Source: an uncultured Gammaproteobacteria bacterium
GTDB lineage: Bacteria; Patescibacteriota; Patescibacteriia; UBA9570; XYC2-FULL-38-9
Assembly: GCA_964344485.1 (NCBI GenBank)
Contig: CAYFNF010000001.1
Coordinates: 18,335 to 82,334 of the forward strand
DNA: 64,000 bases
Direction: 5' to 3'
Part shown: piece by piece, positions 30,522-52,923 of the stretch
How positions within the stretch are numbered: the first letter of the stretch is position 1
Layout: each line of letters begins with the position of its first letter
Made by a program: the position numbers and the translations under genes
The notes under the pieces: generated by a model
What the model was told of the DNA's origin: nothing
Database searches by the model: none
What the model saw: only the letters and a program-made list of their open reading frames with translations

Positions 30522-31010
30522 ATGAAGTGCTTGGGTATAGATCCAGGAATTGAGATAACAGGATTCGGTATATTAGAAGCGAATGGTTCTTCACAGCAAC
30601 TGATAGAGTACGGGGTGATCCGTACTTCTAAAGATGATAGTACGCCAGACCGTTTGCTTCAGCTGCACACAGATCTGATGCAAGTGCTACAGAAGCATCC
30701 AGACATTGCAGTAGCTGGAGTTGAGGAATTATTCTTTGCTAAGAATGCAAAGTCAGCATTCCAAGTTGGACAGGCGCGAGGAGTGATTCTACTCACTCTG
30801 GAGATGCATCACATCCTCATTCGAGAGGTGAAACCAGTTGAAGTAAAAGCTGCAATTGTCGGCTCAGGAAATGCAGATAAAAAGGAGGTGCAGAAAATGG
30901 TTCAATTAACATTTAATTTGGATACGCCACCACAACCTGACGATGCCGCAGATGCAATCGCAATCGCACTCTGCATGGCGTTTGATCAAGAATTGAAACA
31001 ACAACTATGA
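30522..31010 (+). CDS. ruvC: Crossover junction endodeoxyribonuclease RuvC
   Basis: LGIDPG N-terminus and DDAADAIAIALC C-terminal catalytic region. Confidence 0.9.
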   Translation: MKCLGIDPGIEITGFGILEANGSSQQLIEYGVIRTSKDDSTPDRLLQLHTDLMQVLQKHPDIAVAGVEELFFAKNAKSAFQVGQARGVILLTLEMHHILIREVKPVEVKAAIVGSGNADKKEVQKMVQLTFNLDTPPQPDDAADAIAIALCMAFDQELKQQL

Positions 31011-32587
31011 CACATTCCATATCATTACGCGTACTGATCTCTTCACTCATTGTATTTTTTGGAATGACCGCAGCGGTCCTTCCAGCAGCAGCACAAACAG
31101 CAGAGACGTCTGAAGAGATAGTAAGTGAGCAAGTAGTATTGAAGGCAAATGCTGGTAAGGACAGAAACGTTGTTGCAGGACGAACAGTGTTGTTTGATGC
31201 TGAGACTTCCACGATTCCAACAGACGAGGTATTAACATACTCGTGGGATTTTGGTGATGGACATACTTCCACTGGAATCGACGCCACACATATCTACTCT
31301 ACAAGTGGAACGTACCGCGTTACATTAACTGTTGAATCTTCCTCAGGCACTGCTAGTGAAGATAGCATTATCGTTTCAGTACAGGATACGTTAGTGGTGG
31401 TGATTACAGACCAGAGCGTCTCTGCGGAGCAAGTTGAGGATTTACAGGTTTCAGGACTGACCCAAGGAGTGTTGGTGGTACCAATTCGAGATACCGGTGT
31501 AAACCAGGAGTATCTGACGATTCAAAATCTCGCACAGCAGATCTCTGAGAATGAAGAGGATATTAGTTCAGCAAATATCATTGTTACGTGGACTGCTGGT
31601 AATGTGGGCTTAAACTCTCTTGTTGAGCTATCTCGTATTTCATCATTTGGAGATGGGTCGTTAGAGCAGTTCGGTTTCGGATCCAAAGCCATTATTGCGA
31701 TTAATGATCAGTCGTTAGTGACGAGCTTTAAGATTGCGCAGACTACGTTTCAGAGCGTGCAGCCGTCATACTTAGTGGTCTCTGACAGCAAGATCCTTGA
31801 TGATGTGATCCAAGCAGGTACTGCTGAGAATCTGCGAGAGAATTTGAGCAACAGCGATGCGGACTACCAAGTAATTACGGAATATACGGCTCGAGGCCTT
31901 GGAAACTTGAATCCGCTGAATTTCATGTCCTGGACTGTGAATTACATGATTAATAAAGGCGTGCCTATTAATTCGTTGTATTTGATTCTGATGCTACCGG
32001 TGATGGCAACGATTATCGCAGCCGGCCGACAGATGATTGGCATTAAGGCATTCGGTATTTTTGCGCCTACGGTCATCGCATTGTCGTTTCTAGCTACGGG
32101 CATCAAATACGGGGTGACACTGTTCATCGCGATTATCATTATTGGAACTATTGCGAGGTTAATAGCGCGGAAATTCCGATTGCTGTACCTCCCGCGCATG
32201 GCGATTGTACTTTCTATCTTGGCGCTGTCTATCTTTGCAATGTTCTTTGTTGGTGCTGTGTTCAATAAAACAGGCTTCATTGCAATTTCTATCTTCCCGA
32301 TTCTGATTATGACTGTGCTGACAGAGCATTTTGTGTCAGTGCAGATTGAGCAAGGGTACCGTACCGCAATTCGCATGACCCTAGAGACCCTGTTTCTGTC
32401 ATTAATTGGATTCTGGATTGGAGACTGGACCGTGTTCAAAACCATCATTCTTGCATATCCAGAGTTGATCCTCTTAACATTTGTAGTGAACTACCTCATG
32501 GGTAAATTCTCTGGACTGCGGTTAACTGAGTATCTTCGTTTTAAAGAAGTGTTTAAACACATGAAGGATGCTAAAGGGAAGAAATAA
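31007..32587 (+). CDS. Membrane protein: signal peptide, PKD domain, extracytoplasmic region, C-terminal 7-TM module
   Basis: WDFGDGHTS..YRVTLTV PKD signature; seven hydrophobic helices in the last ~230 aa; overlaps ruvC by 4 nt. Confidence 0.6.
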   Translation: MTHSISLRVLISSLIVFFGMTAAVLPAAAQTAETSEEIVSEQVVLKANAGKDRNVVAGRTVLFDAETSTIPTDEVLTYSWDFGDGHTSTGIDATHIYSTSGTYRVTLTVESSSGTASEDSIIVSVQDTLVVVITDQSVSAEQVEDLQVSGLTQGVLVVPIRDTGVNQEYLTIQNLAQQISENEEDISSANIIVTWTAGNVGLNSLVELSRISSFGDGSLEQFGFGSKAIIAINDQSLVTSFKIAQTTFQSVQPSYLVVSDSKILDDVIQAGTAENLRENLSNSDADYQVITEYTARGLGNLNPLNFMSWTVNYMINKGVPINSLYLILMLPVMATIIAAGRQMIGIKAFGIFAPTVIALSFLATGIKYGVTLFIAIIIIGTIARLIARKFRLLYLPRMAIVLSILALSIFAMFFVGAVFNKTGFIAISIFPILIMTVLTEHFVSVQIEQGYRTAIRMTLETLFLSLIGFWIGDWTVFKTIILAYPELILLTFVVNYLMGKFSGLRLTEYLRFKEVFKHMKDAKGKK

Positions 32588-34049
32588 TGTATTAGGCTTG
32601 AACGCTCGCAGCGCAATCTACTTGCGCGGAAATAAAAAGCGAGCTCGAGCTATTGCAGACAATAAAATAGACACAAAGAAGCGACTGAAGAAGCACGGCA
32701 TTGCTACTGCAGATATGTTGGCGGTGATTCGAGAGCGTAGCGAAGCCCGTGAGTTTGATTGGGAGTCGCTACCACCTAGTTTTGTGATTAAACCGAATCG
32801 TGGACTTGGCGGGGAAGGAATACTGATTATCTTTAACCGTCTGAAGAATGGGAATTGGTTAACTACTAATAAGCGGCAGCTAACTGCCGAGGATCTTTCT
32901 GTGCATGTTCATAATATTCTAGATGGGAATTATTCCTTGTTAAATACTCCAGATATTGCATTATTTGAAGCTCGTCTTTCTATTGATCCGTTGTATAAGC
33001 GGTTTTCAACGCAAGGCATTCCTGATATTCGAGTGGTGGTGTATAACAACGTGCCGGTGATGGCGATGCTGCGGGTCCCTACAAAGAAGTCGAACGGAAA
33101 AGCAAATTTAAACCAAGGTGGGCTCGGTATTGGTATTGATATCGCGACCGGGCTGACTACTCATGTGGTGACCAAGTCATTTCTATATGAAAAGGAGATT
33201 GAGCGGCATCCAGACACGAACCTGAGTTTACGGGGTGTACGTGTTCCGTATTGGTCTGAGATATTAAAGACTGCTGTTATTGCTTCGCGTGTTATTGGGC
33301 TGAAGTACGCTGGAGTAGATATTTCTGTGGATAAGAAGCGCGGCCCGGTGGTGCTGGAGTTAAACGCGCGACCAGGTTTGGGAATTCAAGTGGCGAACAT
33401 GGCTCCATTACAGGAGCGTCTTCGTCGCATTCATGGATTGAAAGTAGACACTCCAGAGCGTGGCATCTCGATTGCAAAAGAATTATTTGCCGGACGAATT
33501 GAGCAACGCATTGCGAGCATTACCGGACGACATATCATTGGCCTCATTGAGCCGATTACTCTGTTTGGGAAAGAGAAGGCGATAAAAAAGGTGCGGGCGA
33601 AGATTGATACTGGGGCAGATAATAGTTCTGTGGATACAGCGCTGGCGCGGGAGCTTGGATATGGAGACGCTATTGATCTGTTTGATTCGTATGATATTCC
33701 AGAGGAGTTAACACACGAAGAAGCAAAAGAGCGCGCTCGAGAGATAGAGAAGAATTTAATAAAAGAGAATCGTGATATTCAAGGCCTCTCTATTGTGAGT
33801 TCTTCGCATGGAGTGTCATTGCGTATTCGAATTAAGATGGCAGCGACGCTTTCTGGATATAAGATGAACATTGAACCCACAGTAGTTGACCGTTCACATT
33901 TGAAATATCCAATATTGGTTGGACGCCGCAATCTCGCGCACTTCCTGATTGATACAACAAAAGTTTCACTAAGAAAACGAAAGGTAGTGTCTAAGAAAAG
34001 CACTGCCAAAACCACAAAAGCAAGTACAGCAGGAAAAGCTGCAGTGTGA
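32568..34049 (+). CDS. RimK-related (alpha-L-glutamate-ligase-like) ATP-grasp fused to a C-terminal retropepsin-like aspartic peptidase domain
   Basis: N-terminal LGLNARSAIYLRGNKKRARAIADNKIDTKK and ATP-grasp core. C-terminal IDTGADNSSV is the DTGA aspartic-peptidase signature. Overlaps the upstream 7TM gene by 20 nt. Confidence 0.6.
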   Translation: MLKGRNNVLGLNARSAIYLRGNKKRARAIADNKIDTKKRLKKHGIATADMLAVIRERSEAREFDWESLPPSFVIKPNRGLGGEGILIIFNRLKNGNWLTTNKRQLTAEDLSVHVHNILDGNYSLLNTPDIALFEARLSIDPLYKRFSTQGIPDIRVVVYNNVPVMAMLRVPTKKSNGKANLNQGGLGIGIDIATGLTTHVVTKSFLYEKEIERHPDTNLSLRGVRVPYWSEILKTAVIASRVIGLKYAGVDISVDKKRGPVVLELNARPGLGIQVANMAPLQERLRRIHGLKVDTPERGISIAKELFAGRIEQRIASITGRHIIGLIEPITLFGKEKAIKKVRAKIDTGADNSSVDTALARELGYGDAIDLFDSYDIPEELTHEEAKERAREIEKNLIKENRDIQGLSIVSSSHGVSLRIRIKMAATLSGYKMNIEPTVVDRSHLKYPILVGRRNLAHFLIDTTKVSLRKRKVVSKKSTAKTTKASTAGKAAV

Positions 34050-34061
34050 TACAATACCACT

Positions 34062-34640: not shown

Positions 34641-34644
34641 TGCT

Positions 34645-35670: not shown

Positions 35671-36386
35671 TAGAAACCATTGTTATCGCAGCTGCAGGAA
35701 AGGGAGAACGCATGGAGCATCTGTCTAAGGAGCAGCCGAAACATCTAGTGAAAGTTGCGGGGAAGCCATTTTTACACTACGTATTGCAACAGGCAGATCG
35801 TGTTGGGTGTAAGAAGATGGTAGTCGTGGTTGGGTATATGGCTGACATGGTGCGAGAGTTTCTGGCTGAGCAACCGTACGATATTGTCGTAGTGGATCAG
35901 AACGAGGTGCTTGGCGACAAATACGGAACCGCGGCAGTCATTGAAGCTGTTGAACAAGAGGTGGGCGACCAACCGTTTGTTGTTCAGAATGGAGATTCGC
36001 TCTATTCAAAGAGTGTATTTGAGAGTGTTATGGTGGATGATGGAATGAATCGTGTCGTGGGTACTCACCATCCAGATCCTCAGCATTACGGTGTGATTGA
36101 AGCAGGCACTGACGGGTTGCTCGTTCGTATTGTAGAGAAACCAAAAGAGCCGATGTGCAATGTGATTAATCTAGGGATCTATCTATTTCAACCCGAGATT
36201 TTCTCTGCAGTGAAACAAGTAGAGAAATCACCGCGCGGAGAGTATGAAGTCATTGACGCAATTAATACTCTGGCAGATGAAAAAAAAGTAAAAGTCGAGC
36301 AGTTAATTGGCGAGTGGGTAGACCTTGGAACACCAGAGGACATTCATACCGTAGAGAAATTTTTAGTTAAGCACCATTATATTTAG
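35667..36386 (+). CDS. Sugar-phosphate nucleotidyltransferase
   Basis: N-terminal G-x-G-x-R ... PKHLVKVAGKP motif of NTP-transferases. Confidence 0.65.
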   Translation: MIETIVIAAAGKGERMEHLSKEQPKHLVKVAGKPFLHYVLQQADRVGCKKMVVVVGYMADMVREFLAEQPYDIVVVDQNEVLGDKYGTAAVIEAVEQEVGDQPFVVQNGDSLYSKSVFESVMVDDGMNRVVGTHHPDPQHYGVIEAGTDGLLVRIVEKPKEPMCNVINLGIYLFQPEIFSAVKQVEKSPRGEYEVIDAINTLADEKKVKVEQLIGEWVDLGTPEDIHTVEKFLVKHHYI

Positions 36387-36388
36387 GC

Positions 36389-37312
36389 ATGGGAAAGAAG
36401 ATAGTAACGATTGGTGGCGGGAAAGGGCAACCAGAGCTGTTGCGTTATTTAAAGCACTACGATCACTCCATTACTGCAGTAGTCACTATGATGGACGACG
36501 GAGGTTCTAGTGGTGAGATTCGGCAAGAGAAAGGGTTGTTGCCACCAGGTGATATACGGCGCTGTATTGGAGCGCTCTCTTCAGATCCGGAGTTGTTGGA
36601 TCGTTGGAATGAACGGCGTAAGGACGGACATGCAGTAGGAAACATTGAGATCATTGAAGAAGTAGAGAAGCGCGGCTCTTATGAACAAGCAGTTGACGCA
36701 CTATGCGAGCAGTACGGTGTGAGTACTGGCGTGCCCGCACATCAAGTCCTTCCTGTCACCGTAGATAGCGCAGAGTTAGTTGCTCGGCTAGAGAACAGCG
36801 AAGAGATTCACGGTGAATGCAATATCGATGTTCCTCAGCACGATGCGTCGTTACATATTCAGGATGTATGGCTAGAGCCAGATGCGCAGGTAACCGAACG
36901 TGTGAAACAGGCGTTGTTAGAAGCAGATTTGGTTGTGCTGTCTATGGGAGACCTGTACACGAGCGTCATTGCCAATTTATTAGTGCAAGGTGTTTCAGAA
37001 GCGATCTCTCAAAGCAATGCAGTAGTATCTTATGTATGTAACCGTTCCACTAAGCAAGGTGAGACGCATGATTTCTCTACCATGGAGTACTATACAGAAC
37101 TCTCCCGATATTTAGCTCCAGCGACAGTACAGTATATGATAGTAGACACCGGCGAAGTGGCAGTCCCGTCCACACATCAAGCTGTGCGCTTTGAAGCACT
37201 TCCGGCTGAAGTAGAAGTGATGCGCGCAGAGTTGTCACATAGCGACATGTTACACTTTGCTTCTGGGGAGAAAGCAGCAGCAGTAATCAATACATTATGC
37301 ACATCGTTATAG
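36389..37312 (+). CDS. YvcK/CofD-family (gluconeogenesis factor/UPF0052) protein
   Basis: IVTIGGGKG and TMMDDGGSSGEIR motifs. Confidence 0.75.
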   Translation: MGKKIVTIGGGKGQPELLRYLKHYDHSITAVVTMMDDGGSSGEIRQEKGLLPPGDIRRCIGALSSDPELLDRWNERRKDGHAVGNIEIIEEVEKRGSYEQAVDALCEQYGVSTGVPAHQVLPVTVDSAELVARLENSEEIHGECNIDVPQHDASLHIQDVWLEPDAQVTERVKQALLEADLVVLSMGDLYTSVIANLLVQGVSEAISQSNAVVSYVCNRSTKQGETHDFSTMEYYTELSRYLAPATVQYMIVDTGEVAVPSTHQAVRFEALPAEVEVMRAELSHSDMLHFASGEKAAAVINTLCTSL

Positions 37313-37905
37313 ACTTTGATAATACACTATTTAACACAGACGCTATGCGCGCTGCTTTATTAGAGGCATTGGAGCAGTTTGGGGTAACAAAAGAACAGTA
37401 TCAGTCAACAGAGAAGGAGTTGATCTCACACCAAGGGACTTATAATTTAGAAGGTCATTTAGATTTGATGTTGTCTGGCTCAAAGCGTGAGCAGGCTGGT
37501 ACATTGGCTGATCAAGTTCTAGACCAGGCTGATGAGTATCTATATCCAGACGCGCAGCATTTTTTACAGCAGTATAATGAAGAGCAGTTAACGATTCTAA
37601 CCTTTGGCCCACCTGAATGGCAGCAGCGCAAGATAAAGAATGCAGGACTAGACAATGCTGTGACTGAAGTCATTACAACTCTCGGTGAAAAGAAGGACAT
37701 CATCGCTGATATGACCGAAACGGAGGTAATAGTGATAGAAGATAAAGCAAGCGAGATAGACGCAATGAAGCAGGCACGACCAGAATACACTTACATCTGG
37801 ATACGACGCGAGGGTACGAGTTATTATGATCAGCCGTGTCGCTTTGCAGATTATGAAGTGCATGATCTAGCTTTTGATGTGCGCGAGTTGATGAATTCGA
37901 AGTAA
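37297..37905 (+). CDS. HAD-like hydrolase
   Basis: IVIDFDNTLF motif I; ~200 aa. Confidence 0.5.
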   Translation: MHIVIDFDNTLFNTDAMRAALLEALEQFGVTKEQYQSTEKELISHQGTYNLEGHLDLMLSGSKREQAGTLADQVLDQADEYLYPDAQHFLQQYNEEQLTILTFGPPEWQQRKIKNAGLDNAVTEVITTLGEKKDIIADMTETEVIVIEDKASEIDAMKQARPEYTYIWIRREGTSYYDQPCRFADYEVHDLAFDVRELMNSK

Positions 37906-37916
37906 CGAGCAGGGGC

Positions 37917-39074
37917 ATGAAGATATATTCAGTCACAGAGTTTAGAGAAGAAGTGAATGACCTCCTAGATGAGGTCACTGTTGCAATTCAGGGCGAGATC
38001 TCAGACATGAATATCTCTCAGAATCGGTTTGTGTGGTTCTCATTAGTGGATGATACTACTGTACTGAAGTGTTTCATGTTGACGTTTCAATTGAAGCAAC
38101 CACTCGAAGATGGGATGGAGATTCAGGCCATTGGTTCTCCCACGTTGTTTAAGAAAGGTCAGTTCGTATTTCGACCTCGGCAGATAGAGTTAGTAGGTGA
38201 GGGATCACTCAAGCGCGCATATGAGTTACTCAAGAAAAAGCTAGAGAAAGAGGGGCTGTTCGATGAGACACGAAAGCGAGCACTACCGCGGTTCTCTGAA
38301 AAGATTGGCTTGATTACTAGCAAAGACGCAGCTGCATATACAGACGTACTACGAATTTTGAAAAACCGCTGGGCCGGGCTAGATATTCGTCATATGAACG
38401 TTCAAGTGCAGGGCGCTAAGGCAACGAACAGTATTGTCAACGCGCTCACTGAGTTGAATGAGTCACAACAGGATTTAGATTGTATTATTCTCACACGTGG
38501 AGGTGGTTCATTAGAAGATTTGCAAGCGTTTAATACTGAAGAAGTAGTGCGAGCGATCTATGCGTCAAAGATCCCTGTAGTGTGTGGTGTTGGCCATGAA
38601 CGGGACGTCACACTCTCTGATTTAGTTGCAGATGTTCGAGCCTCGACCCCATCGAATGCAGCTGAAATTGTGGCACCAGACAAACAGGACGTAATTGCGG
38701 AGCTAGAGTATATGAAAGAACGCTGCGTCACGAGTGTAGAGTCTGTGGTGAAGCAGTATCAGGACGGTGTTCAGCAAGCAGTATCCGTGTTAGAGAGCAA
38801 GATACATGAGCAGCACAGTCGCTTTGAGACGCTCCAGTATGCATTTCTCTCGAAGTTTCAGGAGTATCAAGCGCAGATTCAATTGCGCAAGGAGCAGATT
38901 GGCCACATGCAGCAGCTGATCCACTCATACAACCCACTGCATGTGTTAAAACGCGGATATACATTGACAAAAGACTCAAAAGGCAGAATGATTACTACTG
39001 CGAAAAAAGCAAAGCAACAGAAGCAGATCACTACGGTGTTTCGTGATGGCTCTGTAGAATCTACAGTTGATTAA
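37917..39074 (+). CDS. xseA: Exodeoxyribonuclease VII large subunit
   Basis: N-terminal OB fold, GLITSKDAAAYTDVL and LTRGGGSLEDLQAFN catalytic-domain motifs, C-terminal helical region. Confidence 0.85.
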   Translation: MKIYSVTEFREEVNDLLDEVTVAIQGEISDMNISQNRFVWFSLVDDTTVLKCFMLTFQLKQPLEDGMEIQAIGSPTLFKKGQFVFRPRQIELVGEGSLKRAYELLKKKLEKEGLFDETRKRALPRFSEKIGLITSKDAAAYTDVLRILKNRWAGLDIRHMNVQVQGAKATNSIVNALTELNESQQDLDCIILTRGGGSLEDLQAFNTEEVVRAIYASKIPVVCGVGHERDVTLSDLVADVRASTPSNAAEIVAPDKQDVIAELEYMKERCVTSVESVVKQYQDGVQQAVSVLESKIHEQHSRFETLQYAFLSKFQEYQAQIQLRKEQIGHMQQLIHSYNPLHVLKRGYTLTKDSKGRMITTAKKAKQQKQITTVFRDGSVESTVD

Positions 39075-40098
39075 TACTATGCTAGAAACAAAGAAGTACG
39101 ATAAGAAGAACGTTAAGGAGATGGTAGGCGAAATATGGCATTCTCCATTGCGCCTATATTCTCAAGCTGCAGTTCAACAAGGGTGTACAGTGGAGTACTA
39201 TCCCGGGCTAGTGATGGCACGTATGACCTGTCCGAAGAAAGAGTTTTTTATTAAAGACGCTGCGACTCCGCTGAATAACCATACTGCAGCTACTATCGCA
39301 AGCCATAAGTATGTAACTAATATATTGCTAGCAGAAGCGGGCCTTCCAGTATCAAAAGGAGCGTTGGTTAAGAAGAAGGAGTTTGTTGGGGATGAGTGGG
39401 ATATTGGCGACCTTCCGTTTCCGTTGTTAGCAAAACCAGCACACTCTTCTTTTGGTGGGGCTGGAATCCACTCCAATATTCAATCCATGGATGACTTGAA
39501 GAAGGCACTGACTGAGAGTTTTAAAAAGTACACCGCAATGCTTGTGGAGGAGTTCCATCAGAATTTGATTGACTATCGCATCTTGGTGCTAGATGGAGAA
39601 GTGCTAAGCTCTGTTAAACGTACTCCAGCAACAATATATGGAGATGGTAGTTCTACCGTACAAGCATTAGTAGATGCAAAAACAGAGGAACGAAAACGAT
39701 TGAAAACATTATCGTATCCAGTAGTAAAAATAGATGATGAAGTACTTCGTTCGCTCCAAGAGATGAACCTATCATTAGATGCTGTGCCAGAGAAGGGCCA
39801 GCGAGTGCAGCTTCGGGAACAGTGCAACTTAAATCTTGGAGGAGAAACAGAGAATGTTGATGATCAAATTTGTGAAGAGAATAAACAGATCGCGATTCGT
39901 GCTGCAGAAGTGCTAGGCCTTCGTTTGGCAGGAATGGATTTTTTATGTGAGGATATTAGCGTTCCAATGACTGAGTCGCGAGGAGTGATCGTGGAAGCAA
40001 ATCAGCACCCCGGTATTACATTAAATGCTCTTCCAACCATTGGGGAGGGTACTGATGTTGCTACGCCAATTATAAAAACGATTATAGAGACAGGGTGA
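39067..40098 (+). CDS. Stand-alone cyanophycin-synthetase G-domain-like ATP-grasp ligase (paralog 1)
   Basis: Collinear with the CphA ATP-grasp domain: LLAKP..GGAGI, DYRILVLDGEVL, GDGSSTVQALVD, NLNLGGETENV, GLRLAGMDFL, GVIVEANQHPG. Confidence 0.65.
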   Translation: MINTMLETKKYDKKNVKEMVGEIWHSPLRLYSQAAVQQGCTVEYYPGLVMARMTCPKKEFFIKDAATPLNNHTAATIASHKYVTNILLAEAGLPVSKGALVKKKEFVGDEWDIGDLPFPLLAKPAHSSFGGAGIHSNIQSMDDLKKALTESFKKYTAMLVEEFHQNLIDYRILVLDGEVLSSVKRTPATIYGDGSSTVQALVDAKTEERKRLKTLSYPVVKIDDEVLRSLQEMNLSLDAVPEKGQRVQLREQCNLNLGGETENVDDQICEENKQIAIRAAEVLGLRLAGMDFLCEDISVPMTESRGVIVEANQHPGITLNALPTIGEGTDVATPIIKTIIETG

Positions 40099-40099
40099 T

Positions 40100-41116
40100 A
40101 TGAAAAAACGAAAAATTGTAAGAGTCACCAAACAAAACATTGATACTATCATGCCGAAGAAGCTTGAGGCATTGATTATTAAAGAAGCGTATGAGATGGG
40201 GTATCGGATTGATGTATATACTGGAACAAATAACTATCGGCTCACACATAAAGATGGGCGTCAGAAATGGATTCGTGGAATTTTCTTTCCGTTGAATACG
40301 TTTTCAGGAATTGTGTTTACCAAAGACAAGTATTGGACCAACCTGCTGTTAGATCAGGAGGGCTTGCCGGTCCCTAATGGACGACGAATTTCTGCAGCAA
40401 AGATTAACGCAAAGAAGTACTCGGTCGCTGGAGTGAAATTTCCAGTAGTAGCTAAGCCGTCGTTTGGTACGGCATTTGGTAAGGGTGTTATCACTGGCAT
40501 CCCAAACAAGAAGGAGTTACATCAGCACTTGGCGCGTCTCGCCAAGCGATATAATAATGTTTTAGTTGAAGAGTATCACACGAATGTTGAGGACTACCGT
40601 GTGTTAGTGTTGGATGGAAAAGTTATTGGCGCGCTGCATCGTATCCGTCCATTTGTCACTGGCGACGGTATGCATACCATTCAAGAGTTGGTGGAACAAA
40701 AAAATAAGGAGCGAGCAGAGCGTACTGAGATGACGTATTTACCAATTCCACTGGATACAGAGCTGAAGCAGACCATACGCACTCAAGGACATACTCTTAA
40801 AAGCATTCCAAAAAAAGACGAATACGTCTTAGTTCGCAATATCTGCAATCTGTCTGCTGGAGGCGACATTGGAGACGTGACTGACACCATGCATTCGAAG
40901 AACAAAGAGATTGCAATTCGCGCTGCAGAGGTGTTGGGCCTTCGTTTGGCCGGTGTGGATATTCTCTGTAAGGATATCACTGTTCCGATTACAAAAAATG
41001 GTGGTGTAATAATAGAGGTGAATAGCTTGCCAGGATGTGCACTGCACTACTATCCAGAGTACGGCAAACCTCGAAGAGTAGCGAAAGAGATCGTTAAAGC
41101 GATTTTTTCTAAATAA
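40100..41116 (+). CDS. Stand-alone cyanophycin-synthetase G-domain-like ATP-grasp ligase (paralog 2)
   Basis: Paralog of 39067..40098 with the same motif order (VVAKPSFGTAFGKGV, DYRVLVLDGKVI, GDGMHTIQELV, NLSAGGDIGDVTD, GLRLAGVDIL, GVIIEVNSLPG). Confidence 0.65.
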   Translation: MKKRKIVRVTKQNIDTIMPKKLEALIIKEAYEMGYRIDVYTGTNNYRLTHKDGRQKWIRGIFFPLNTFSGIVFTKDKYWTNLLLDQEGLPVPNGRRISAAKINAKKYSVAGVKFPVVAKPSFGTAFGKGVITGIPNKKELHQHLARLAKRYNNVLVEEYHTNVEDYRVLVLDGKVIGALHRIRPFVTGDGMHTIQELVEQKNKERAERTEMTYLPIPLDTELKQTIRTQGHTLKSIPKKDEYVLVRNICNLSAGGDIGDVTDTMHSKNKEIAIRAAEVLGLRLAGVDILCKDITVPITKNGGVIIEVNSLPGCALHYYPEYGKPRRVAKEIVKAIFSK

Positions 41117-41122
41117 TTGTCA

Positions 41123-41151
41123 TTGACATAACCGGTAAATACACGTACTCT
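41123..41151 (+). promoter_or_regulatory. Sigma70-like promoter TTGACA-N17-TACTCT with a very short leader upstream of xseB
   Basis: Read directly; the -10 ends ~10 nt before the ATG at 41162. Confidence 0.4.
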
Positions 41152-41161
41152 AGTATTAAAT

Positions 41162-41407
41162 ATGGCTAAAAAACAGGGAAAAAAACGAACAACTGCTGGA
41201 GCAAAGTCATCCAAGACGTTTGCAAACCGCTTTGAAGAGTTGGAAAAGATTGTTGAGTCTTTTGACTCCGAAGAGCTGGATGTAGATGCAAGCGTTAAGC
41301 AATTCGAAAAGGGCTTGAAGCTTGCAGAAGAGTTAAAAGAAACATTAGAATCCGTAGAGAATAAGATTGAAACTCTGAAGAAGAAATATCACGTGGAGGA
41401 AGAATAA
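41162..41407 (+). CDS. xseB: Exodeoxyribonuclease VII small subunit
   Basis: 81 aa; FEELEKIVESF..FEKGLKLAEEL matches the XseB helical core. Confidence 0.75.
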   Translation: MAKKQGKKRTTAGAKSSKTFANRFEELEKIVESFDSEELDVDASVKQFEKGLKLAEELKETLESVENKIETLKKKYHVEEE

Positions 41408-41421
41408 GTAACAACACCCCC

Positions 41422-42270
41422 ATGCGATTTTTTTGTATTACCAGTCCAGCGCAACAGCAGTCGAACGACTTGCTGAAACAAGCGTGTGATGCACGCTCAT
41501 TTGAGTATATTGAGGTGGATGTAGAAGGATTTGATTATTCCGAGCAACTCATTGTTGATGCTCGAGATATTTTGTATAACACTATTGGTTTTGGGAAGTC
41601 TCGGGAGATAGAGAAGTTCTTTATACAGAGAGGAGTGAACAGTTTTTTTGCATATAGTAAGCGACCGTACGCAGTGTATTCTCAATTACATTTGTTTGCA
41701 GCTTCTGGGATTCCAATACCAGAGACCATATTTCATCTCACCAAGGATCGAAAGCGGTTACAAGCGTACGTTGAGAAGCTCAGTGGCTTTCCAGTGATTA
41801 TCAAGCGATCTTCAGGTGGTAGTCACGGTGTAGGTGTGATGAAAGTAGAGTCAAATGATGCGTTATTTTCTGTTGTAGACTATCTCCTGTCTTCTACGAA
41901 AGACATCTTTGTATTGCAGCAGTATATTCCAGCAAAGACATCCGCGCGATTGATTGTACTGAAAGACAAGGTGATAGACAGCATCGAATACCAAGCGCCA
42001 GATGATGACTTTCGATCAAACGAAGGTAAGAAACCGACCGTGGCTGCTAAAGAATTCCCTAAACAGTATCAAGACATTGCAGTGCAAGCAGTGCAAGCCA
42101 TGGATGTGGAGTTTGGTGGAGTGGATATCCTTACGCACGACAATAAGCTCTATGTTACTGAAGTGAATTTTCCATGTTTCTTTCCACGTGCGCAGTTAAC
42201 GACTGGTGTAGATATCGCAGGAATGATGTTAGATCACCTACAGAGTAAGACTCCGCCAGATGATAGATGA
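41422..42270 (+). CDS. RimK/GshB-like ATP-grasp ligase
   Basis: FPVIIKRSSGGSHGVGV and GGVDILTHDNKLYVTEVNFPCFF. Confidence 0.6.
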   Translation: MRFFCITSPAQQQSNDLLKQACDARSFEYIEVDVEGFDYSEQLIVDARDILYNTIGFGKSREIEKFFIQRGVNSFFAYSKRPYAVYSQLHLFAASGIPIPETIFHLTKDRKRLQAYVEKLSGFPVIIKRSSGGSHGVGVMKVESNDALFSVVDYLLSSTKDIFVLQQYIPAKTSARLIVLKDKVIDSIEYQAPDDDFRSNEGKKPTVAAKEFPKQYQDIAVQAVQAMDVEFGGVDILTHDNKLYVTEVNFPCFFPRAQLTTGVDIAGMMLDHLQSKTPPDDR

Positions 42271-43543
42271 GGAGTATAAGAAAATTGTTATTACCGGCAC
42301 CAAAGGCAAGACCACGATTGTCCGGTTGCTTGATCATGTGCTACTGGAGCTAGGGTTCCACACGTTGAGAGTGGATACTGACGGGCACTTTAAGGACGGA
42401 AAGCAACGTAGTTCTTATGAAGAGTCGCGAAAGTATTGGGGTATGGTGCCGAACGTCTGCCCAGGACGTTACCTCTATGATTTGGAGGGATTGCCAGTGA
42501 ATAGAACTGTAGTATTGCTAGAAGCAGCAATTGGATCCTCTTCATTGCGTGGTCTCGGGTATTCGTATCATCAAATTGGGGTGTTTACGAATGTATTTGA
42601 GGATCATATTACAAAGGTGCGAATCAAGAATAGAAAAGACATTTACGACGCAAAACGGTTTGCATTTACACGACTCAGAAAGGACGGGCAGTTTATTTAC
42701 AATTCCAGTGATTCGTTTTTGGCAAAACAGTTACAGCAAGAAATCATTGGCCGTCGAATGATAGCAGTAGGGGAGGAATTGAAATATGTACAACCGCAGT
42801 CGTTCTTTAAAGGCGGCAATGTTCATTTTTTAATTGAAGGATCACGCATTTTCTACATGACTGCAAAAACAAAGCGACTGCTCGTAGACACTGCTACTAT
42901 TCCATTGTCGTTTAACGGAATGTTTGTACCGAATAACTACAACATCGCGTTCGCATTAGGAGTGTTGTATGCGCATTTTGGGTCTACACAGTTCTTTAGA
43001 AAATTACATAAAATTCGAGCAGCGTTAGAATCTTATACGTTGGACACTGCCGGTGGAAGACTGTTGTTATTACAGTCCAAGAATAAAGACCTGTCTGTAT
43101 TAATTGATTTTGCGCATGAAGCGCGATCATTACGGGAAGTGGGTAAACTGGCAAAGAAGCTGAGTAGCAACAGAGTCATTGGAGTATTACGGCTCGATCC
43201 ATCTCGAACAAACAAGGAGATTCAGCAAGCTGCACGTGCAATCAAAACTGCGTATGATGAGATTATTATCTACGATAAGGTAGACGGCGTACAGCAAAAA
43301 AAGAGCAGAACTGTTGCCGAGGGGAAGCGCAGAACCGTTGGTCAGACCGCGCGTCTATTTGTACGAGAGCTAAAGCGTGCAGGGCACAAGAATGTGCAAA
43401 TGGAGTTACGCGAGCAACGTGCATTTAACAGCGCAGTACAGCAAGCCGAACCCGGAGACGTAATAGTGTATATTGGTCGCGGAGAGGATCACAGGAAAAC
43501 GTACGATGTTGTTAAGAAGAAGCTTAGGAGCATTCGATCATGA
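42260..43543 (+). CDS. Mur-ligase-family amide ligase (CphA M-domain / PgsB-like), stand-alone
   Basis: ITGTKGKTT P-loop of the Mur-ligase central domain at the N-terminus; overlaps the upstream gene. Confidence 0.6.
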   Translation: MIDEEYKKIVITGTKGKTTIVRLLDHVLLELGFHTLRVDTDGHFKDGKQRSSYEESRKYWGMVPNVCPGRYLYDLEGLPVNRTVVLLEAAIGSSSLRGLGYSYHQIGVFTNVFEDHITKVRIKNRKDIYDAKRFAFTRLRKDGQFIYNSSDSFLAKQLQQEIIGRRMIAVGEELKYVQPQSFFKGGNVHFLIEGSRIFYMTAKTKRLLVDTATIPLSFNGMFVPNNYNIAFALGVLYAHFGSTQFFRKLHKIRAALESYTLDTAGGRLLLLQSKNKDLSVLIDFAHEARSLREVGKLAKKLSSNRVIGVLRLDPSRTNKEIQQAARAIKTAYDEIIIYDKVDGVQQKKSRTVAEGKRRTVGQTARLFVRELKRAGHKNVQMELREQRAFNSAVQQAEPGDVIVYIGRGEDHRKTYDVVKKKLRSIRS

Positions 43544-44499
43544 TAAAAGCTTGCGTACTCATCGGACTAGGCTGTGGACGCCGAAATCATCCCTTCGTAA
43601 AAGGGAGTATTTATGAAGGAGCGTATAGAGTATTATCACAACAAGCTGAGGAGCAGGGGGTGCAGTTCTATCGATGCAAGAATAAATCATTTAGTTTTAC
43701 AACTGGCCGTTTTTCTAGTGGATGGACATTGAGAAATAATAAATGGGTTCGTGTGAAAAATATTAAACCAGATGTGTTACTGGATAAATCAACAGCTATT
43801 TATCGGTCCGAGACGTTTCGTCATAAAGTGAGGATGTCAACCTATGCGCCAATCGTGAATTCGTTAGACTTTACTATGCTATTTGGAAGTAAGATGTTTA
43901 CGTACACAATATTCAGTAAGTTTATGAAAAAAAGCATTCGCGTAACGAATGCGTCAGAATTGCGGGATGCGGCGAAACAGTTAAAGACCAATCGTATAGT
44001 GGTAAAGCCGGTGTACGGGTCTTCTGGAAAGGATATTTCAATAGTGACTAAGGATAAAATTCGCACTGTCCAAATTAATCGCCCCATGATCGCACAGGAG
44101 TTTATCGATAGTTCAAAAGGCATTAAGGGGCTGACAGATACTGTTCATGATCTTCGTTTAGTATTTGAAAGTGATTCATTCATTTATAGTTATATCCGTA
44201 CGCCAGTGAAAGGCTCGCTATTAGCAAATGTCGCCCAAGGAGGATCTATGAAGATAGTGACTAAGAAAGAGATGCCGAAAAAAGTATGGGATATCATTAA
44301 GGAAGTTCATGCGTCATTACGACCGTATTTTCCAGGTATCTATACTATAGATCTTATGTTTGATAAACAGCAGCAACCATGGATCGTCGAGTTAAATACC
44401 ATGCCGGGTATCTATTTTTATGAGGATCAAAAGAAATGGCAAGATCGGTTTTATGCAGCACAGATAAAGATATTAAAGAATGCAGTAAATAAGAGATAG
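43540..44499 (+). CDS. ATP-grasp protein (YheC/YheD- or TTL-like), paralog 1
   Basis: IVVKPVYGSSGKDISIV and LANVAQGGS motifs. Confidence 0.45.
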   Translation: MIKACVLIGLGCGRRNHPFVKGSIYEGAYRVLSQQAEEQGVQFYRCKNKSFSFTTGRFSSGWTLRNNKWVRVKNIKPDVLLDKSTAIYRSETFRHKVRMSTYAPIVNSLDFTMLFGSKMFTYTIFSKFMKKSIRVTNASELRDAAKQLKTNRIVVKPVYGSSGKDISIVTKDKIRTVQINRPMIAQEFIDSSKGIKGLTDTVHDLRLVFESDSFIYSYIRTPVKGSLLANVAQGGSMKIVTKKEMPKKVWDIIKEVHASLRPYFPGIYTIDLMFDKQQQPWIVELNTMPGIYFYEDQKKWQDRFYAAQIKILKNAVNKR

Positions 44500-44500
44500 A

Positions 44501-45451
44501 ATGAAAGAACAAATCATCGGGTTTATTTATAACGATTCGGATTGGGAGCGGACTGTACCGTTTCAAAAGCCCGCGATGCGGGAGTCATATGAGCGCATGT
44601 ACGATCGCGCGGTACAGAAATACGGCATGCGGATCTACCGTATGAGTAAGGAATGGTATAAGGACGGCGCGTTTCATCGTGCATGGACATGGAAAGACGG
44701 GAAATGGATAAAAGTGCGACAACGCATCAAGGCAGACATCTACTATGACAAGATGTCCACTACGTATCAAAGCATGTCTTTTCAGCAGCAGTTCTATCAA
44801 GAGAATCGCGTGGTGAATGCGCCAGAGTTTGATTTAGTTGCTTCAGATAAGTTATTAACCTATCTTGCGTGCGGTGATATCATGACCAAGACCTACGTTG
44901 TGAACTCTACAGTTGATTTAAAGAATGCACTTGCGAAGATATCAACAAAGAAAGCAGTATTGAAACCACGGCTTGGGTATGGGGGCGCTGGTATTCAGAT
45001 AACTAGCAAAGCACAGTTACTAAAGAAGCGAGTCTCTGGGAGCTATATAGTGCAACCGTATGTCGACACATCAGGTGGCGTGCCAGGGTTGTTTAAGGGA
45101 ACGCATGATTTTCGGGTGATATTAGCAAACGATAAGCCAGTCATGGCGTATATCCGCACTCCAGCGCCAGGTACTGAGTTGTGCAACATCTCTTTAGGAG
45201 GAGGGATCTGTTTTGTGCCAGTATCTAAGATGCCAAAGACAGTAAAGCCATTACTACGGAGAATGTCAGAAGCGTTTGCGGTCTTTCCGCAGAAGTTTTA
45301 CGGAGCAGATTTTTACTTTCAGAACGGTAAACCACAGTTAGTAGAGATAAATACTAAACCGAACATGGTCTATTTCTTGGATAACTTACAGCAAGAGGCC
45401 AAGATGCACGACAACGTACTGTCATATATGCAGTCAATTATTCAATCATGA
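44501..45451 (+). CDS. ATP-grasp protein (YheC/YheD- or TTL-like), paralog 2
   Basis: Paralog of 43540..44499 (VLKPRLGYGGAGIQIT, NISLGGG). Confidence 0.45.
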   Translation: MKEQIIGFIYNDSDWERTVPFQKPAMRESYERMYDRAVQKYGMRIYRMSKEWYKDGAFHRAWTWKDGKWIKVRQRIKADIYYDKMSTTYQSMSFQQQFYQENRVVNAPEFDLVASDKLLTYLACGDIMTKTYVVNSTVDLKNALAKISTKKAVLKPRLGYGGAGIQITSKAQLLKKRVSGSYIVQPYVDTSGGVPGLFKGTHDFRVILANDKPVMAYIRTPAPGTELCNISLGGGICFVPVSKMPKTVKPLLRRMSEAFAVFPQKFYGADFYFQNGKPQLVEINTKPNMVYFLDNLQQEAKMHDNVLSYMQSIIQS

Positions 45452-46275
45452 GAAAGTTTTTCGCATTCATTGTTGGTTTCATAGTGAGTTTCATCTGCTG
45501 CTGTATTGTGTTTATGATTGCGGTATATATTACTGCTCCATCGCACTATAATGTGCTGTTTGTTGGGTCTGATCAACGCGAGAATGAGCGAGCACGATCT
45601 GATGTCCTATTTGTGGTGTCGCTTCCAAAAAGCGGCGATGAACAGCCGTTCTTTTTAACTATCCCGCGTGATACTAAGATTGAACACGATGAATGGGGAT
45701 TGCAGAAGATTACGCACTTCTACGCGCTTGGTGAGCGGCCAGACGATGGAAAGCTACTTGGTAATATTGACTTAGTAGAAAGCGTGGTGGAAGAGCTACT
45801 CGACATCAAGATCCATGCGACCGCAGAGGTAACGTTTACCAGTTTTGAAGAGATTATAGATGAGCTGGGTGGCGCTGTTCTAGATGGACAGGTGATCTCT
45901 GGCCAAGAAGCGCTTGATGTGGTGCGTGATCGTTTTACCGAAGGTCGATCGGATTTCGACCGGCAAGCAGATGCGCGAGAGATCCTTCGTTCATTGATGA
46001 CAAAAGTGAAGAGTCCTTCTACTGTAAAAACAGTACTGCAGTACTTTAATGATGCGACGTATGCACGCGTGGACTACGGCAAGATGAAAGCAGTCCACTT
46101 TTTAATCGGAGCTGGCATCTCTCGTAAAGGAGATGTGAGAATCGGGGAGATGGAGGAAGAAGCGTTGCCAGGGCAGAGTGACCGGATCTACACTCCGGCA
46201 TTCGGCAAAGAACTGTACTACTGGGTCCCCGACCAAGAAGCGTTAGAAGAGATTATTGATAATCACTTTAAATAA
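45448..46275 (+). CDS. LytR-CpsA-Psr (LCP) family polymer-to-peptidoglycan transferase
   Basis: N-terminal TM anchor, RSDVLFVVS and IPRDT motifs. Confidence 0.7.
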   Translation: MRKFFAFIVGFIVSFICCCIVFMIAVYITAPSHYNVLFVGSDQRENERARSDVLFVVSLPKSGDEQPFFLTIPRDTKIEHDEWGLQKITHFYALGERPDDGKLLGNIDLVESVVEELLDIKIHATAEVTFTSFEEIIDELGGAVLDGQVISGQEALDVVRDRFTEGRSDFDRQADAREILRSLMTKVKSPSTVKTVLQYFNDATYARVDYGKMKAVHFLIGAGISRKGDVRIGEMEEEALPGQSDRIYTPAFGKELYYWVPDQEALEEIIDNHFK

Positions 46276-47036
46276 TGTTTTCCGCCTCCCCATTCAAGTT
46301 ACGCATGTTTGAGACCTGCCCTCGGCAGTACAAGTTTACGTATGTTGATGACTTGGCAAAAGAGTATAAAAAGCCTAAGCCGTACTTGACCATGGGGGCG
46401 CACGTGCATAATGCGTTGAAGGATTTCTATGAACAGTTAGATCTAGAGAGCCGCACGTATGAGGAGCTAGAAAAAATTCTGCGCCGACGATGGACCGAGA
46501 ATAGGAAGGGATTCAGTGACAAGGATGATGAAGCAAAGTGGGGCACCAAGGCACTGAACATGTTGCGGCTGTTTGTGCATCGCATGGATGTCTCTGTTGA
46601 CCCAGCCATGCTCGAAGACTACTACGATGTGGAGCTAGATGAGAGCTTGAAGTTAATTGGACGTATTGACCGTGCGGATGAGTTAGAAGACGGTTCACTC
46701 CATGTGATTGATTATAAAACTGGAAAGTTTGATCCGGAGGACGTCTCTGACCTGCAGTTGATCTTGTATGCGTTAATTGTCTCTGCGAATCAGAAGAAGC
46801 CGGTGACCAAGGCGAGTTATTTATATCTGCAGACCTGGGACTGGCATACGATTGATGTAGGGCAAGACGAAGCCGAGCATGCAGTAGAGATGGTGAAAGA
46901 ACAGGTAGAGAAGATCAAGCAAGAGAGCGAGTTTGCTCCACAAGTGAACAAGTACTGCAAGAACTGTGATTACTTAAGTATCTGCCCAGCTAAGGATCAA
47001 GTAGAAATTGGAATCAGCTCAGAAGAATCAGAGTAA
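46275..47036 (+). CDS. PD-(D/E)XK nuclease (Cas4/RecB-like, with Fe-S Cys cluster)
   Basis: IDRADE...VIDYKTGK nuclease core; one N-terminal Cys (ETCPRQ) plus C-terminal CKNCDYLSIC. Confidence 0.6.
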   Translation: MFSASPFKLRMFETCPRQYKFTYVDDLAKEYKKPKPYLTMGAHVHNALKDFYEQLDLESRTYEELEKILRRRWTENRKGFSDKDDEAKWGTKALNMLRLFVHRMDVSVDPAMLEDYYDVELDESLKLIGRIDRADELEDGSLHVIDYKTGKFDPEDVSDLQLILYALIVSANQKKPVTKASYLYLQTWDWHTIDVGQDEAEHAVEMVKEQVEKIKQESEFAPQVNKYCKNCDYLSICPAKDQVEIGISSEESE

Positions 47037-47042
47037 ATCAAA

Positions 47043-47071
47043 ACACCCCAGCTGAAGTTACCGGGGTGTTT
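47043..47071. terminator. Bidirectional intrinsic terminator (CACCCC..GGGGTG hairpin between A and T runs)
   Basis: Lies between convergent genes. Confidence 0.55.
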
Positions 47072-47082
47072 TATTGTATATC

Positions 47083-48654: not shown

Positions 48655-48780
48655 ACTTCGTATATTAATAGTATTCCTTATATAGATTATACAAACATGA
48701 AGTGCAATATTTGTAAATATGTCTTTATGGGCAGCATGTGATCCTTGCTGGACACCGGTATACATAGTAGTATTACTCAT

Positions 48781-50508: not shown

Positions 50509-50544
50509 ATATTTCAGGGTTAATAGTGATTATATACACCGTAC

Positions 50545-50600
50545 CCGAACAAAACCCGAATGTCAAATATCACCTGTGGATAACCGAATAAAACCCGAAT
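50545..50600. promoter_or_regulatory. Two copies of a GAAC/GAAT-N7-GAAT direct-repeat motif (CCGAAyAAAACCCGAAT) upstream of lexA; candidate LexA operator
   Basis: Read directly. It resembles, in reverse complement, the alphaproteobacterial GTTC-N7-GTTC LexA box. Confidence 0.3.
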
Positions 50601-50799
50601 AAGTATTGACTTCCGTGCAGTTGCGTAATAACGTGACAGTCTGAGAAATCAGATTAGGTCCAACAATTTGTATCCTCTTCTCCACTATAGCTGAAAGTAG
50701 AAGTGCGTAACTCCTATTTTCAACTGTATTGGATGGACGGAACAACGAGAATGGCCCAAGAACGGACGGGCCAGTGACGCCTCGGAGGAGGGCGACAAC

Positions 50800-52890: not shown

Positions 52891-52923
52891 GCAGGACACG
52901 TCCTGCACGGGCGTGACCAACAA

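Follow-up and report, generated by a model that had tools for sequence, protein, structure and literature searches.

What do five ATP-grasp ligases and one stand-alone Mur-type ligase make when they are encoded side by side in a Patescibacterial genome, and do they make it together? The cluster lies in a stretch of 64,000 nucleotides that we analyzed as a whole (the window; positions 18,335 to 82,334 of contig CAYFNF010000001.1, GenBank assembly GCA_964344485.1). Patescibacteria have very small genomes, yet the lineage of the window spends about 7 kb on these six ATP-dependent ligases. An earlier note had interpreted them as the modules of a canonical cyanophycin synthetase (CphA), split and duplicated, in a system that synthesizes a non-ribosomal poly-amino acid or peptide and anchors it to the cell wall. 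Non-ribosomal synthesis of this kind is still the most reasonable function, while the splitting of CphA and the anchoring step are not supported. The reading that we prefer, with a confidence just short of even, is that the cluster is a paralog-rich case of a ribosome-independent amide-ligase system found across the Patescibacteria, in which one Mur-type and one to five ATP-grasp ligases make a peptide or a poly-amino acid. Such a system probably works like cyanophycin synthetase, yet it is no member of the CphA1 family, and authentic cyanophycin is not the product to be expected.

The Mur-type ligase (Table 1) is made up of Mur_ligase_M and Mur_ligase_C only, with the P-loop TGTKGKTT at residues 12 to 19, and its earlier description as a separate, CphA M-like Mur ligase with a GTKGKTT motif agrees with sequence, profile, and fold. 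Its best model is the CphA M domain (positions 482 to 860 of 862, E value of 6.5e-42), followed by MurE (9e-17), FolC (5e-4), and PgsB (4e-3), and its AlphaFold 2 (AF2) model (pLDDT of 92.7) matches the CphA1 M domain with a TM-score of 0.79 (E value of 4.5e-25) and then MurE with one of 0.69 (2e-19). The enzyme looks catalytically intact. The M-domain residues of TeCphA1 involved in ATP/Mg binding and transition-state stabilization (PMC9427784), namely, K499, T500, T522, E558, N581/D585/H586, R731, and H748, all have equivalents in the Mur-like family that are invariant or nearly so. The window protein keeps K17, T18, T40, E88, N111, D115, H116, R267, and H286; in an alignment of 26 family members, K17, E88, N111, H116, R267, and H286 are invariant, T18 and D115 are each present in 24, and T40 is present in 25. 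The family also has traits of its own: the GTNGKT of CphA1 is replaced by GTKGKT, whose Lys for Asn is invariant, and a segment has been added at about residues 41 to 70 in which G42, S56, P68, and G69 do not vary.

This protein has no N-terminal UDP-MurNAc-binding domain, the highest score that it reaches with MurE is 60.7 bits, where the cutoff is 373, and its matches to folC (19.6 bits, cutoff of 162.65) and PgsB (CapB; 16.1 bits, cutoff of 222.7) fall below the family thresholds. The window codes separately for a canonical MurE at 61026 to 62333 (TIGR01085, 319.8 bits against a cutoff of 257.3). The missing N-terminal domain, the affinity to CphA1 M, and the separate MurE together indicate that the ligase of the cluster is an additional, non-housekeeping enzyme, and a substrate without UDP is expected for it. 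As for the MurE itself, it aligns to its model only from about position 67 to 86 onward, and its N-terminal domain may be short or its true start may lie upstream; the next open reading frame (ORF; 62333 to 63562, 409 amino acids) has no NCBIfam match.

Relatives of the Mur-type ligase form a coherent family. A word-indexed search gave about 110 clusters at 90% identity, 32 to 51% identical to the query, and in an exhaustive profile search of 1.84 billion proteins, the top ranks go to stand-alone proteins about 420 amino acids long (about 100 representatives at 50% identity), with full-length CphA1 (870 to 900 amino acids, aligned at about 480 to 865) coming next, from about 200 bits. Where a source label is given, it is Patescibacteria (Moraniibacteriota, Saccharimonadales, Pacebacteria, Microgenomates), with the single exception of a metagenome-assembled genome labelled Gammaproteobacteria (locus L002), in which two Mur-like genes lie in tandem at 8015 to 10551. 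The same profile search returned other architectures, CphA N plus M without G (616 to 645 amino acids) and a Mur-Mur tandem fusion of 972 amino acids (P0443, P0449, P0420), as well as two proteins of 661 to 697 amino acids (P0454 and P0488) in which an ATP-grasp region stands N-terminal to Mur_ligase_M and Mur_ligase_C.

Table 1. Genes of the ligase cluster and of the associated upstream module, with positions in the window
Feature	Position	Strand	Basis
Class-A ATP-grasp ligase 1, CphA1 G-domain-like, stand-alone	39067..40098	+	NCBIfam cyanophycin synthetase model match
Class-A ATP-grasp ligase 2, CphA1 G-domain-like, stand-alone	40100..41116	+	CphA model and PDB match
xseB, exonuclease VII small subunit	41162..41407	+	Pfam Exonuc_VII_S 7.4e-12
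Class-R ATP-grasp ligase, RimK-like	41422..42270	+	Pfam RimK 4e-28
Stand-alone Mur-type ligase, CphA1 M-domain-like	42260..43543	+	Pfam Mur_ligase_M and Mur_ligase_C
Class-G ATP-grasp ligase 1, GshB/LysX/RimK-like fold	43540..44499	+	Weak YheCD/ST/TTL Pfam matches
Class-G ATP-grasp ligase 2, old paralog of 43540-44499	44501..45451	+	28% identity, E value of 4e-45
LCP-family protein, N-terminal transmembrane helix	45448..46275	+	Pfam LytR_cpsA_psr 2.9e-18
RloB-like membrane protein (signal peptide, PKD-like domain, seven-transmembrane region)	31007..32587	+	NCBIfam RloB seven-transmembrane region, E value of 2.3e-21
RloC-like ATP-grasp (ATPgrasp_ST) fused to RimB/RloA-like retropepsin	32568..34049	+	Pfam ATPgrasp_ST 2.1e-65, Zn_protease 4.7e-7

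The two class-A ATP-grasps are old paralogs (37% identity) that are collinear with the G domain of CphA and carry no M domain; here profile spans and the PDB match support what had been read from the sequence. Class-A ligase 1 matches the cyanophycin synthetase model at positions 195 to 473 of 871 (E value of 1e-60) and Ddl at 5e-10; it has a TTG start, and the public gene call of 339 amino acids places the probable start at the fifth codon, an ATG at about 39079. Class-A ligase 2 covers positions 212 to 473 of 871 (2.5e-73), and its best PDB match is the CphA1 G domain (7lg5 residues 211 to 480, 3.7e-41); no part of CphA1 before about residue 198 is aligned. Weaker profiles for the pair are GshAB (1e-45 to 1e-54), RimK (1e-16 to 1e-24), and Ddl (about 1e-9). 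Both proteins keep the ATP/Mg set K220, K261, R309, D431, E450, and N452 (CphA1 numbering), along with R323 and N394, and S396 is kept in ligase 2 only. Three other positions are substituted in ligases 1 and 2, respectively, E215 by T and V, H267 by G and F, and R458 by T and A, and these three are also unconserved across the 11 Patescibacterial class-A proteins examined. In CphA1, E215 contacts the Arg side chain of the primer, H267 stabilizes the acyl-phosphate, and R458 contacts the alpha-carboxylate of the incoming Asp, while R323 and N394 contact its beta-carboxylate (PMC9427784).

These residues bear directly on whether the cluster could make genuine cyanophycin, poly-Asp with Arg branches, from a split CphA1. 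The G and M domains of CphA1 are the closest known relatives of the ligases, R309, R323, and N394 are kept, and the Joint Genome Institute (JGI) annotation names many family members "cyanophycin synthetase." We nevertheless hold this to be very improbable, with E215, H267, and R458 replaced, no match to the CphA1 N domain (PF18921) in any protein of the cluster, and scores of 206 to 248 bits for the class-A pair and 130 to 143 bits for the Mur-like ligase against cutoffs of 850 to 877. Furthermore, a CphA-G-like partner accompanies the Mur-like gene in a minority of loci, the usual partner being RimK-like together with RimB-like, and the Pfam annotation of five neighborhoods contains no cyanophycinase family, S51 not having been searched for specifically. 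Other phyla, too, have stand-alone CphA-G-like ATP-grasps with unrelated surroundings, Legionella being one example, so the view of a canonical CphA fusion that was split and duplicated is not supported. One such case, on a Legionella-like contig (L086, 8001 to 9086), is a 361-amino-acid protein publicly named "UDP-N-acetylmuramyl tripeptide synthase," which is a mislabel; it adjoins HMGL-like, isocitrate/isopropylmalate dehydrogenase-like, RraA-like, and DUF6282 genes and looks like part of a different small-molecule pathway. Automated pipelines give the name "cyanophycin synthetase" to genes of the family studied here, and published reconstructions, which may or may not rest on members of this family, credit the candidate phyla radiation (CPR) with cyanophycin synthesis. 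The residue and architecture tests suggest that inferring cyanophycin would be unsafe for this family.

The RimK-like ligase scores 98.8 bits with Pfam RimK (cutoff of 21), 105.5 with rimK_fam TIGR00768 (cutoff of 143.4), and 81 with the S6-ligase equivalog (cutoff of 331), and it matches PDB RimK (5zct) with an E value of 5e-20. Class G, represented by class-G ligase 1, has over 200 clusters of homologs, and those that carry a source label all come from the Patescibacteria. The AF2 model of this protein (pLDDT of 92.6) has a fold nearest to GshB, ArgX/LysX, and RimK, with TM-scores of 0.65 to 0.73, and since each of these works on a carboxylate of a peptide or protein, the fold supports peptide carboxylates as substrates. 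The class-G and RimK-like proteins retain K, D, E, and N at the invariant positions, including the family-invariant ones in class-G ligase 2. The domain assignments and coordinates first given for the RimK-like gene, the two YheC/D- or TTL-like ATP-grasps, and the LCP gene that follows them were correct, and none of the proteins turned out to be an ordinary Ddl, RimK, GshB, MurC-F, or FolC. Outside the ligase cluster, the only ATP-grasp match in the window is the RloC-like fusion, so the clustering of these domains is no background property of the sequence.

The association of the Mur-like ligase with ATP-grasps is conserved among relatives. We sampled five loci by exact protein look-up, at least three from genome contigs, and 58 metagenome loci via a family-specific sub-alignment, and classified their ORFs with profiles built from the window proteins, with Pfam spot-checks. 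Our counts refer to 36 loci in which the sequence extends 1.5 kb or more to each side of the Mur-like gene; several of these loci are near-duplicates and hence not independent. In 33 of the 36, an ATP-grasp is encoded no more than 2.5 kb from the Mur-like gene, two or more ATP-grasps are present in 16, and a RimB-like retropepsin domain is found in 22. RimK-like is the ATP-grasp class most often adjacent to the Mur-like gene, and a triad of Mur-like, RimB-like, and RimK-like genes is the commonest layout. In the Saccharimonadia-type arrangement, the order is DnaJ, in some cases a class-A ATP-grasp, an unannotated protein of about 350 amino acids, the Mur-like ligase, a RimB-like retropepsin of about 165 amino acids, a RimK-like protein of about 302 amino acids, and DUF192. 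A Moraniibacteria-type arrangement, seen in seven loci, runs from ruvC through 7TM_transglut, ATPgrasp_ST with or without retropepsin, and at least one RimK-like, class-G, or class-A ATP-grasp to the Mur-like gene and usually PBP1A. The third arrangement consists of a DsbA-like protein, the Mur-like ligase, an ATP-grasp, and an ATP-grasp of the L-amino-acid ligase (LAL) type (ATP-grasp_4 plus LAL_C2). Directly upstream of the Mur-like gene, seven loci carry a family of about 300 to 370 amino acids that has no Pfam match (including L085 9099 to 9989 and L117 8106 to 9206) and is a divergent ATP-grasp by comparison with class G (hhalign probability of 96%).

In the window, a second set of genes at 31007 to 34049, which had gone unmentioned in the earlier note, adds to the likeness with the RimK and RimB side of this association. 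It contains all the parts of the RloABC/RimBK systems (seven-transmembrane [7TM] protein, ATP-grasp, and DTG retropepsin), every one of them scoring below the curated cutoff. The RloB-like protein is 60% identical to a protein of the related locus L082 annotated as PF14402 7TM_transglut, and its similarity to RloB (76 bits against a cutoff of 900) is limited to the 7TM half; the N-terminal part is PKD-like, and an inactive transglutaminase domain could not be detected in that half. The RloC-like fusion reaches 272.7 bits with TIGR02291 (cutoff of 314.2) and 9e-8 with RloA3, with its DTG motif intact (KIDTGAD). In seven loci (L083, L084, L088, L091, L097, L099, and L102), this module directly adjoins the Mur-like cluster, and both of its genes in the window probably belong to a module associated with the ligase cluster. 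Such contiguity suggests one shared system with an acidic, possibly envelope-related product. Poly-alpha-glutamate is the polymer that RimK synthesizes, and in Pseudomonas, stretches of eight or more Glu are cut by RimB and RloA (PMC11957051). The rloABC genes of Pseudomonas influence the shape of the cells, their tolerance of hypo-osmotic conditions, and their sensitivity to beta-lactams; when rloB or rloC is lost, the defects of rloA-null cells in osmotic behavior, morphology, and antibiotic sensitivity are suppressed (PMC11957051). An acidic product is suggested because RimK, RimB, and RloA act on poly-Glu and because R323 and N394 are kept in the class-A pair.

From these elements a mechanism can be proposed for the ligase system. 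Activation of a carboxylate as an acyl-phosphate is established chemistry for both the ATP-grasp and Mur superfamilies, and each enzyme of the cluster would use it to join an amine. The ATP-grasps (RimK-like, CphA-G-like, and GshB/LysX-like) would extend an acidic, Glu/Asp-rich alpha-peptide at its C terminus, while the Mur-type ligase would couple an amino compound to a carboxylate of the chain, on a side chain or at a terminus, which is the role of the M domain when cyanophycin is made. A RimB/RloA-like retropepsin could then trim or prime the acidic chain, and the RloB-like 7TM protein may link the product to the envelope.

The same parts would also suit the C-terminal tagging of proteins, in which ATP-grasps add a Glu-rich tail to a protein such as S6, with a further residue supplied by the Mur-type ligase and the retropepsin taking the tail off again. 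RimK and RimB, which with the Mur-like ligase form the commonest triad, are the pair that edits the tail of S6 (PMC11957051), and LysX/ArgX, enzymes that work at the C terminus of the carrier protein LysW, have a fold similar to that of class G. But the RimK-like ligase falls far short of the S6-ligase equivalog and below the rimK_fam cutoff, and no carrier or target gene is evident in the cluster, where there are no free small ORFs and intergenic gaps do not exceed 45 nucleotides. We also know of no Mur-type ligase that modifies a protein, and tagging seems to us quite unlikely. XseB was considered as a target and discarded: its C terminus in the window (...HVEEE) and those in the related loci L082 (8691 to 8930, ...YDAE) and L087 (6831 to 7052, ...DSDGD) are acidic but different, and hence uninformative, and their likeness to the acceptor tails of RimK-type enzymes is probably coincidental.

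Several observations weigh against a single peptide-making system. L082 and L087 share the synteny of the window (7TM, ST/retropepsin fusion, ruvA, femX-like, nucleotidyltransferase, yvcK, HAD, xseA, xseB, ligases, LCP, PD(D/E)XK, RNaseH-like, and lexA), and the window XseA is 59% identical to that of L082, but their ligase sets vary. The set of L082 consists of a single class-A and a single RimK-like ATP-grasp plus the Mur-like ligase, while L087 has three class-A and two class-G ATP-grasps and a DUF3541 protein, without a Mur-like ligase. These enzymes thus do not all have to serve a single product, and at least one relative can do without the Mur-type ligase. There is no adjacent ATP-grasp in L002, L003, or L108, and possibly none in L128, which has a partial Mur-like gene with too little upstream sequence and lies outside the 36 counted loci. 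In several loci the Mur-like gene is paired with an LAL-type ATP-grasp, which fits a short defined peptide better than a polymer. Adjacency is also weaker evidence than usual in compact genomes, where unrelated genes overlap too, and the step from active ligases that co-occur to one common product, with its backbone and branch enzymes, is one that we infer. On the DUF3541 protein (322 amino acids, L087 11024 to 11992), we note that it sits at the position of the Mur-like ligase between class-A and class-G genes and may be an alternative partner enzyme.

A functional link between the LCP protein and the ligases is not supported. It reaches 66.9 bits with the Pfam model (cutoff of 24.6) and 57.8 with TIGR00350, just under the cutoff of 62.3, and its hydrophobic N terminus agrees with an LCP domain plus anchor. 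Nonetheless, an LCP gene follows the ligases only in the window, L082, and L087, as part of a fixed LCP-PD(D/E)XK-RNaseH-LexA block whatever ligases precede it, and other lineages carry PBP1A, DUF192, or other genes at this position. This weakens the case for a specific tie between the LCP protein and the ligases, and with it the claimed anchoring of the product to the cell wall, though such a tie is still conceivable. The class-A genes lie between xseA and xseB in the window, whereas all ligase genes follow xseB in L082 and L087. As sets and positions of the ligases differ while the LCP block is constant, the ligase complement has been remodeled between related genomes.

Variation of this kind also resembles a varying peptide composition, and it brings in a short peptide of defined length built on the Ddl/MurF pattern. 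Each ATP-grasp would add one residue, and the Mur-type ligase would attach the di- or oligopeptide to the peptidoglycan stem, a cross-bridge, or another envelope carboxylate, to give a lineage-variable and probably wall-related peptide rather than a polymer. Ddl and MurF are an established case of cooperation between an ATP-grasp and a Mur ligase, a dipeptide-forming, LAL-type ATP-grasp stands beside the Mur-like gene in several loci, and wall genes are close by, with PBP1A directly downstream in L083, L084, L088, L091, and L099 and FemX-like, GlmU-N-like nucleotidyltransferase, YvcK, and LCP genes in the window. On the other hand, the Mur-like ligase lacks the UDP-binding N-terminal domain and is nearest to CphA M, not to MurF or MurE, the wall-gene neighbors reflect lineage-specific synteny mixed with DNA-repair genes (ruvABC, xseAB, and lexA), and the commonest partners, a RimK-like ligase and a poly-Glu-type retropepsin, point to homopolymeric acidic tails. 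We regard the defined peptide as an unlikely alternative.

Gene spacing adds little to either interpretation. Start and stop codons of adjacent genes had been reported to overlap all the way from the RimK-like gene through the LCP gene, and four junctions do so, by 11 nucleotides (RimK-like/Mur-type), 4 (Mur-type/class-G ligase 1), 4 (class-G ligase 2/LCP), and 1 (LCP/46275 to 47036), while the two class-G genes, like the two class-A genes, are separated by a 1-nucleotide gap. The translational coupling read from this as the sign of a unit does not distinguish the cluster, as overlaps or gaps of no more than 60 nucleotides run through the whole co-directional plus-strand array at 29079 to 47036 (about 18 kb), which also holds yebC, ruvC, ruvA, the FemX-like gene, a sugar-1-phosphate nucleotidyltransferase, yvcK, HAD, xseA, and xseB. 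Overlaps running through unrelated genes are a trait of the compact genome and not of the ligase cluster, and xseB is probably unrelated to the ligases among which it lies. The promoter-like sequence noticed ahead of xseB, TTGACA-N17-TACTCT, is present at 41124 to 41152 with a weak -10 element; such sites are not in excess at 31 to 49 kb (29 found against 34.5 +/- 6.5 expected in shuffled sequence). The sole strong hairpin of the promoter and terminator scan (47039 to 47073, 14-bp stem) is at the end of the array. With counts not above those of shuffled sequence and a single strong hairpin at the array end, operon boundaries cannot be drawn inside the cluster. Scans of the 64 kb for tRNA genes and Rfam families at the gathering threshold gave none, and no RNA element in or near the cluster.

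Compaction could even account for the cluster by itself, if independent ligase genes had been brought together by genome compaction and local duplication with no function in common. The interleaved xseB, the genome-wide overlaps, and the variable ligase complement of relatives agree with such a history. Yet adjacency of Mur-like and ATP-grasp genes recurs in at least three layouts and several Patescibacterial classes, and P0454 and P0488 join an ATP-grasp region to Mur domains in a single protein, so we give this explanation little credence.

Three other candidates were discarded. A pathway in which the upstream NTP-transferase, "CofD," and HAD genes supply the ligases with an F420-like or phospho-linked head group was set aside because the "CofD" protein is YvcK (TIGR01826 above cutoff) and the NTP-transferase is GlmU-N/RmlA-like. 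A graspetide cluster, that is, one for a peptide made on the ribosome and modified after translation (RiPP), finds no free small ORF for a precursor in gaps of at most 45 nucleotides, and TIGR04187 gives 35 bits against a cutoff of 350. Antiphage defense received no PADLOC match for the six ligases or the LCP protein.

The ligase system may be part of something more specific, namely, a phylum-wide multi-protein synthetase for a branched or decorated acidic poly-amino acid, with a backbone made by ATP-grasps (RimK-like, CphA-G-like, or GshB-like), branches added by stand-alone CphA-M-like ligases, length controlled by retropepsins, and delivery to or action at the envelope through the RloB-like 7TM protein. 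We consider this "glutamate-backbone cyanophycin analogue," in which the stand-alone modules would represent an unfused state related to the ancestor of cyanophycin synthetase, possible if rather unlikely. In the literature we found only automated "cyanophycin synthetase" calls or annotation-level mentions in CPR genomes and none linking Mur ligases to RimK in this way, though the ATP-grasp neighborhood survey of Iyer et al. 2009 may already mention it. Since the pairing of Mur-like and ATP-grasp ligases has been kept across several classes, the product is probably important to these bacteria, possibly at the cell surface, through which their epibiotic lifestyle is mediated. Naturally unfused relatives of CphA1 G and M could clarify the origin of the cyanophycin synthetase fusion and could yield new ATP-dependent chemistry for peptide polymers.

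Downstream of the ligases, the window has some further features. A Cas4-like PD-(D/E)XK nuclease (46275 to 47036; TIGR00372 cas4, 65.6 against a cutoff of 65) is the sole neighbor that matches PADLOC Cas4-type models, and together with an RNase_H_2/PolB-exo-like protein (48745 to 49584) it lies next to lexA; this nuclease/RNaseH block is conserved in L082 and L087, and no CRISPR or cas context was seen. Convergent with the array is a minus-strand ORF of 590 amino acids (47083 to 48855), followed by the hairpin at 47039 to 47073 and without Pfam, NCBIfam, or PADLOC matches. Between lexA (49870 to 50508) and an M23 peptidase gene (55902 to 56399), about 5.5 kb (50500 to 56000) have a GC content of 0.54 to 0.60, against about 0.44 elsewhere, with long ORFs on both strands (51391 to 52890 on the plus and 51439 to 52929 on the minus strand, 54310 to 55767 on the minus and 54330 to 55535 on the plus strand). 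None of these ORFs has a Pfam match, no rRNA, tRNA, or Rfam match was found in the stretch, and it may be foreign or unusual coding DNA.

Among known systems, CphA1 (PDB 7LG5 and 7WAC) has the same two types of catalytic module and the same logic of pairing an ATP-grasp with a Mur-type ligase. However, its G and M domains are in one polypeptide, while the modules of the cluster are separate proteins with up to five ATP-grasps per Mur-like ligase. The cluster proteins score well below the CphA1 cutoffs, and the M-domain catalytic residues are conserved in the Mur-like ligase whereas part of the G-domain recognition residues is lost in the class-A pair. The commonest ATP-grasp partner of the Mur-like family across the phylum is also a different one, RimK-like. 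In MurC-F and Ddl, the same two superfamilies supply several ligases that assemble one peptide step by step, with the product of the ATP-grasp handed to a Mur ligase, but the Mur-like protein lacks their UDP-binding domain and the class-A pair resembles Ddl only weakly.

PgsB/CapB, MurT/GatD, and FolC are likewise ligases of the Mur type whose carboxylate substrates carry no nucleotide; among the proteins of the cluster and its immediate neighbors, no match suggests a PgsC/PgsA or GatD partner, and to our knowledge, ATP-grasp partners are no feature of these systems. The RimK/RimB and Pseudomonas RloABC systems resemble ours in their partners, as RimK-like and RimB-like genes are the commonest neighbors of the Mur-like ligase and the window has an RloB-like 7TM protein and an RloC-like fusion with a DTG retropepsin. 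The retropepsin of the window differs in being fused to an ATP-grasp, without a signal peptide of its own, and scores for these systems are under the equivalog cutoffs. The rim and rlo operons as described (PMC11957051) contain no Mur-type ligase, while the cluster presented here has one.

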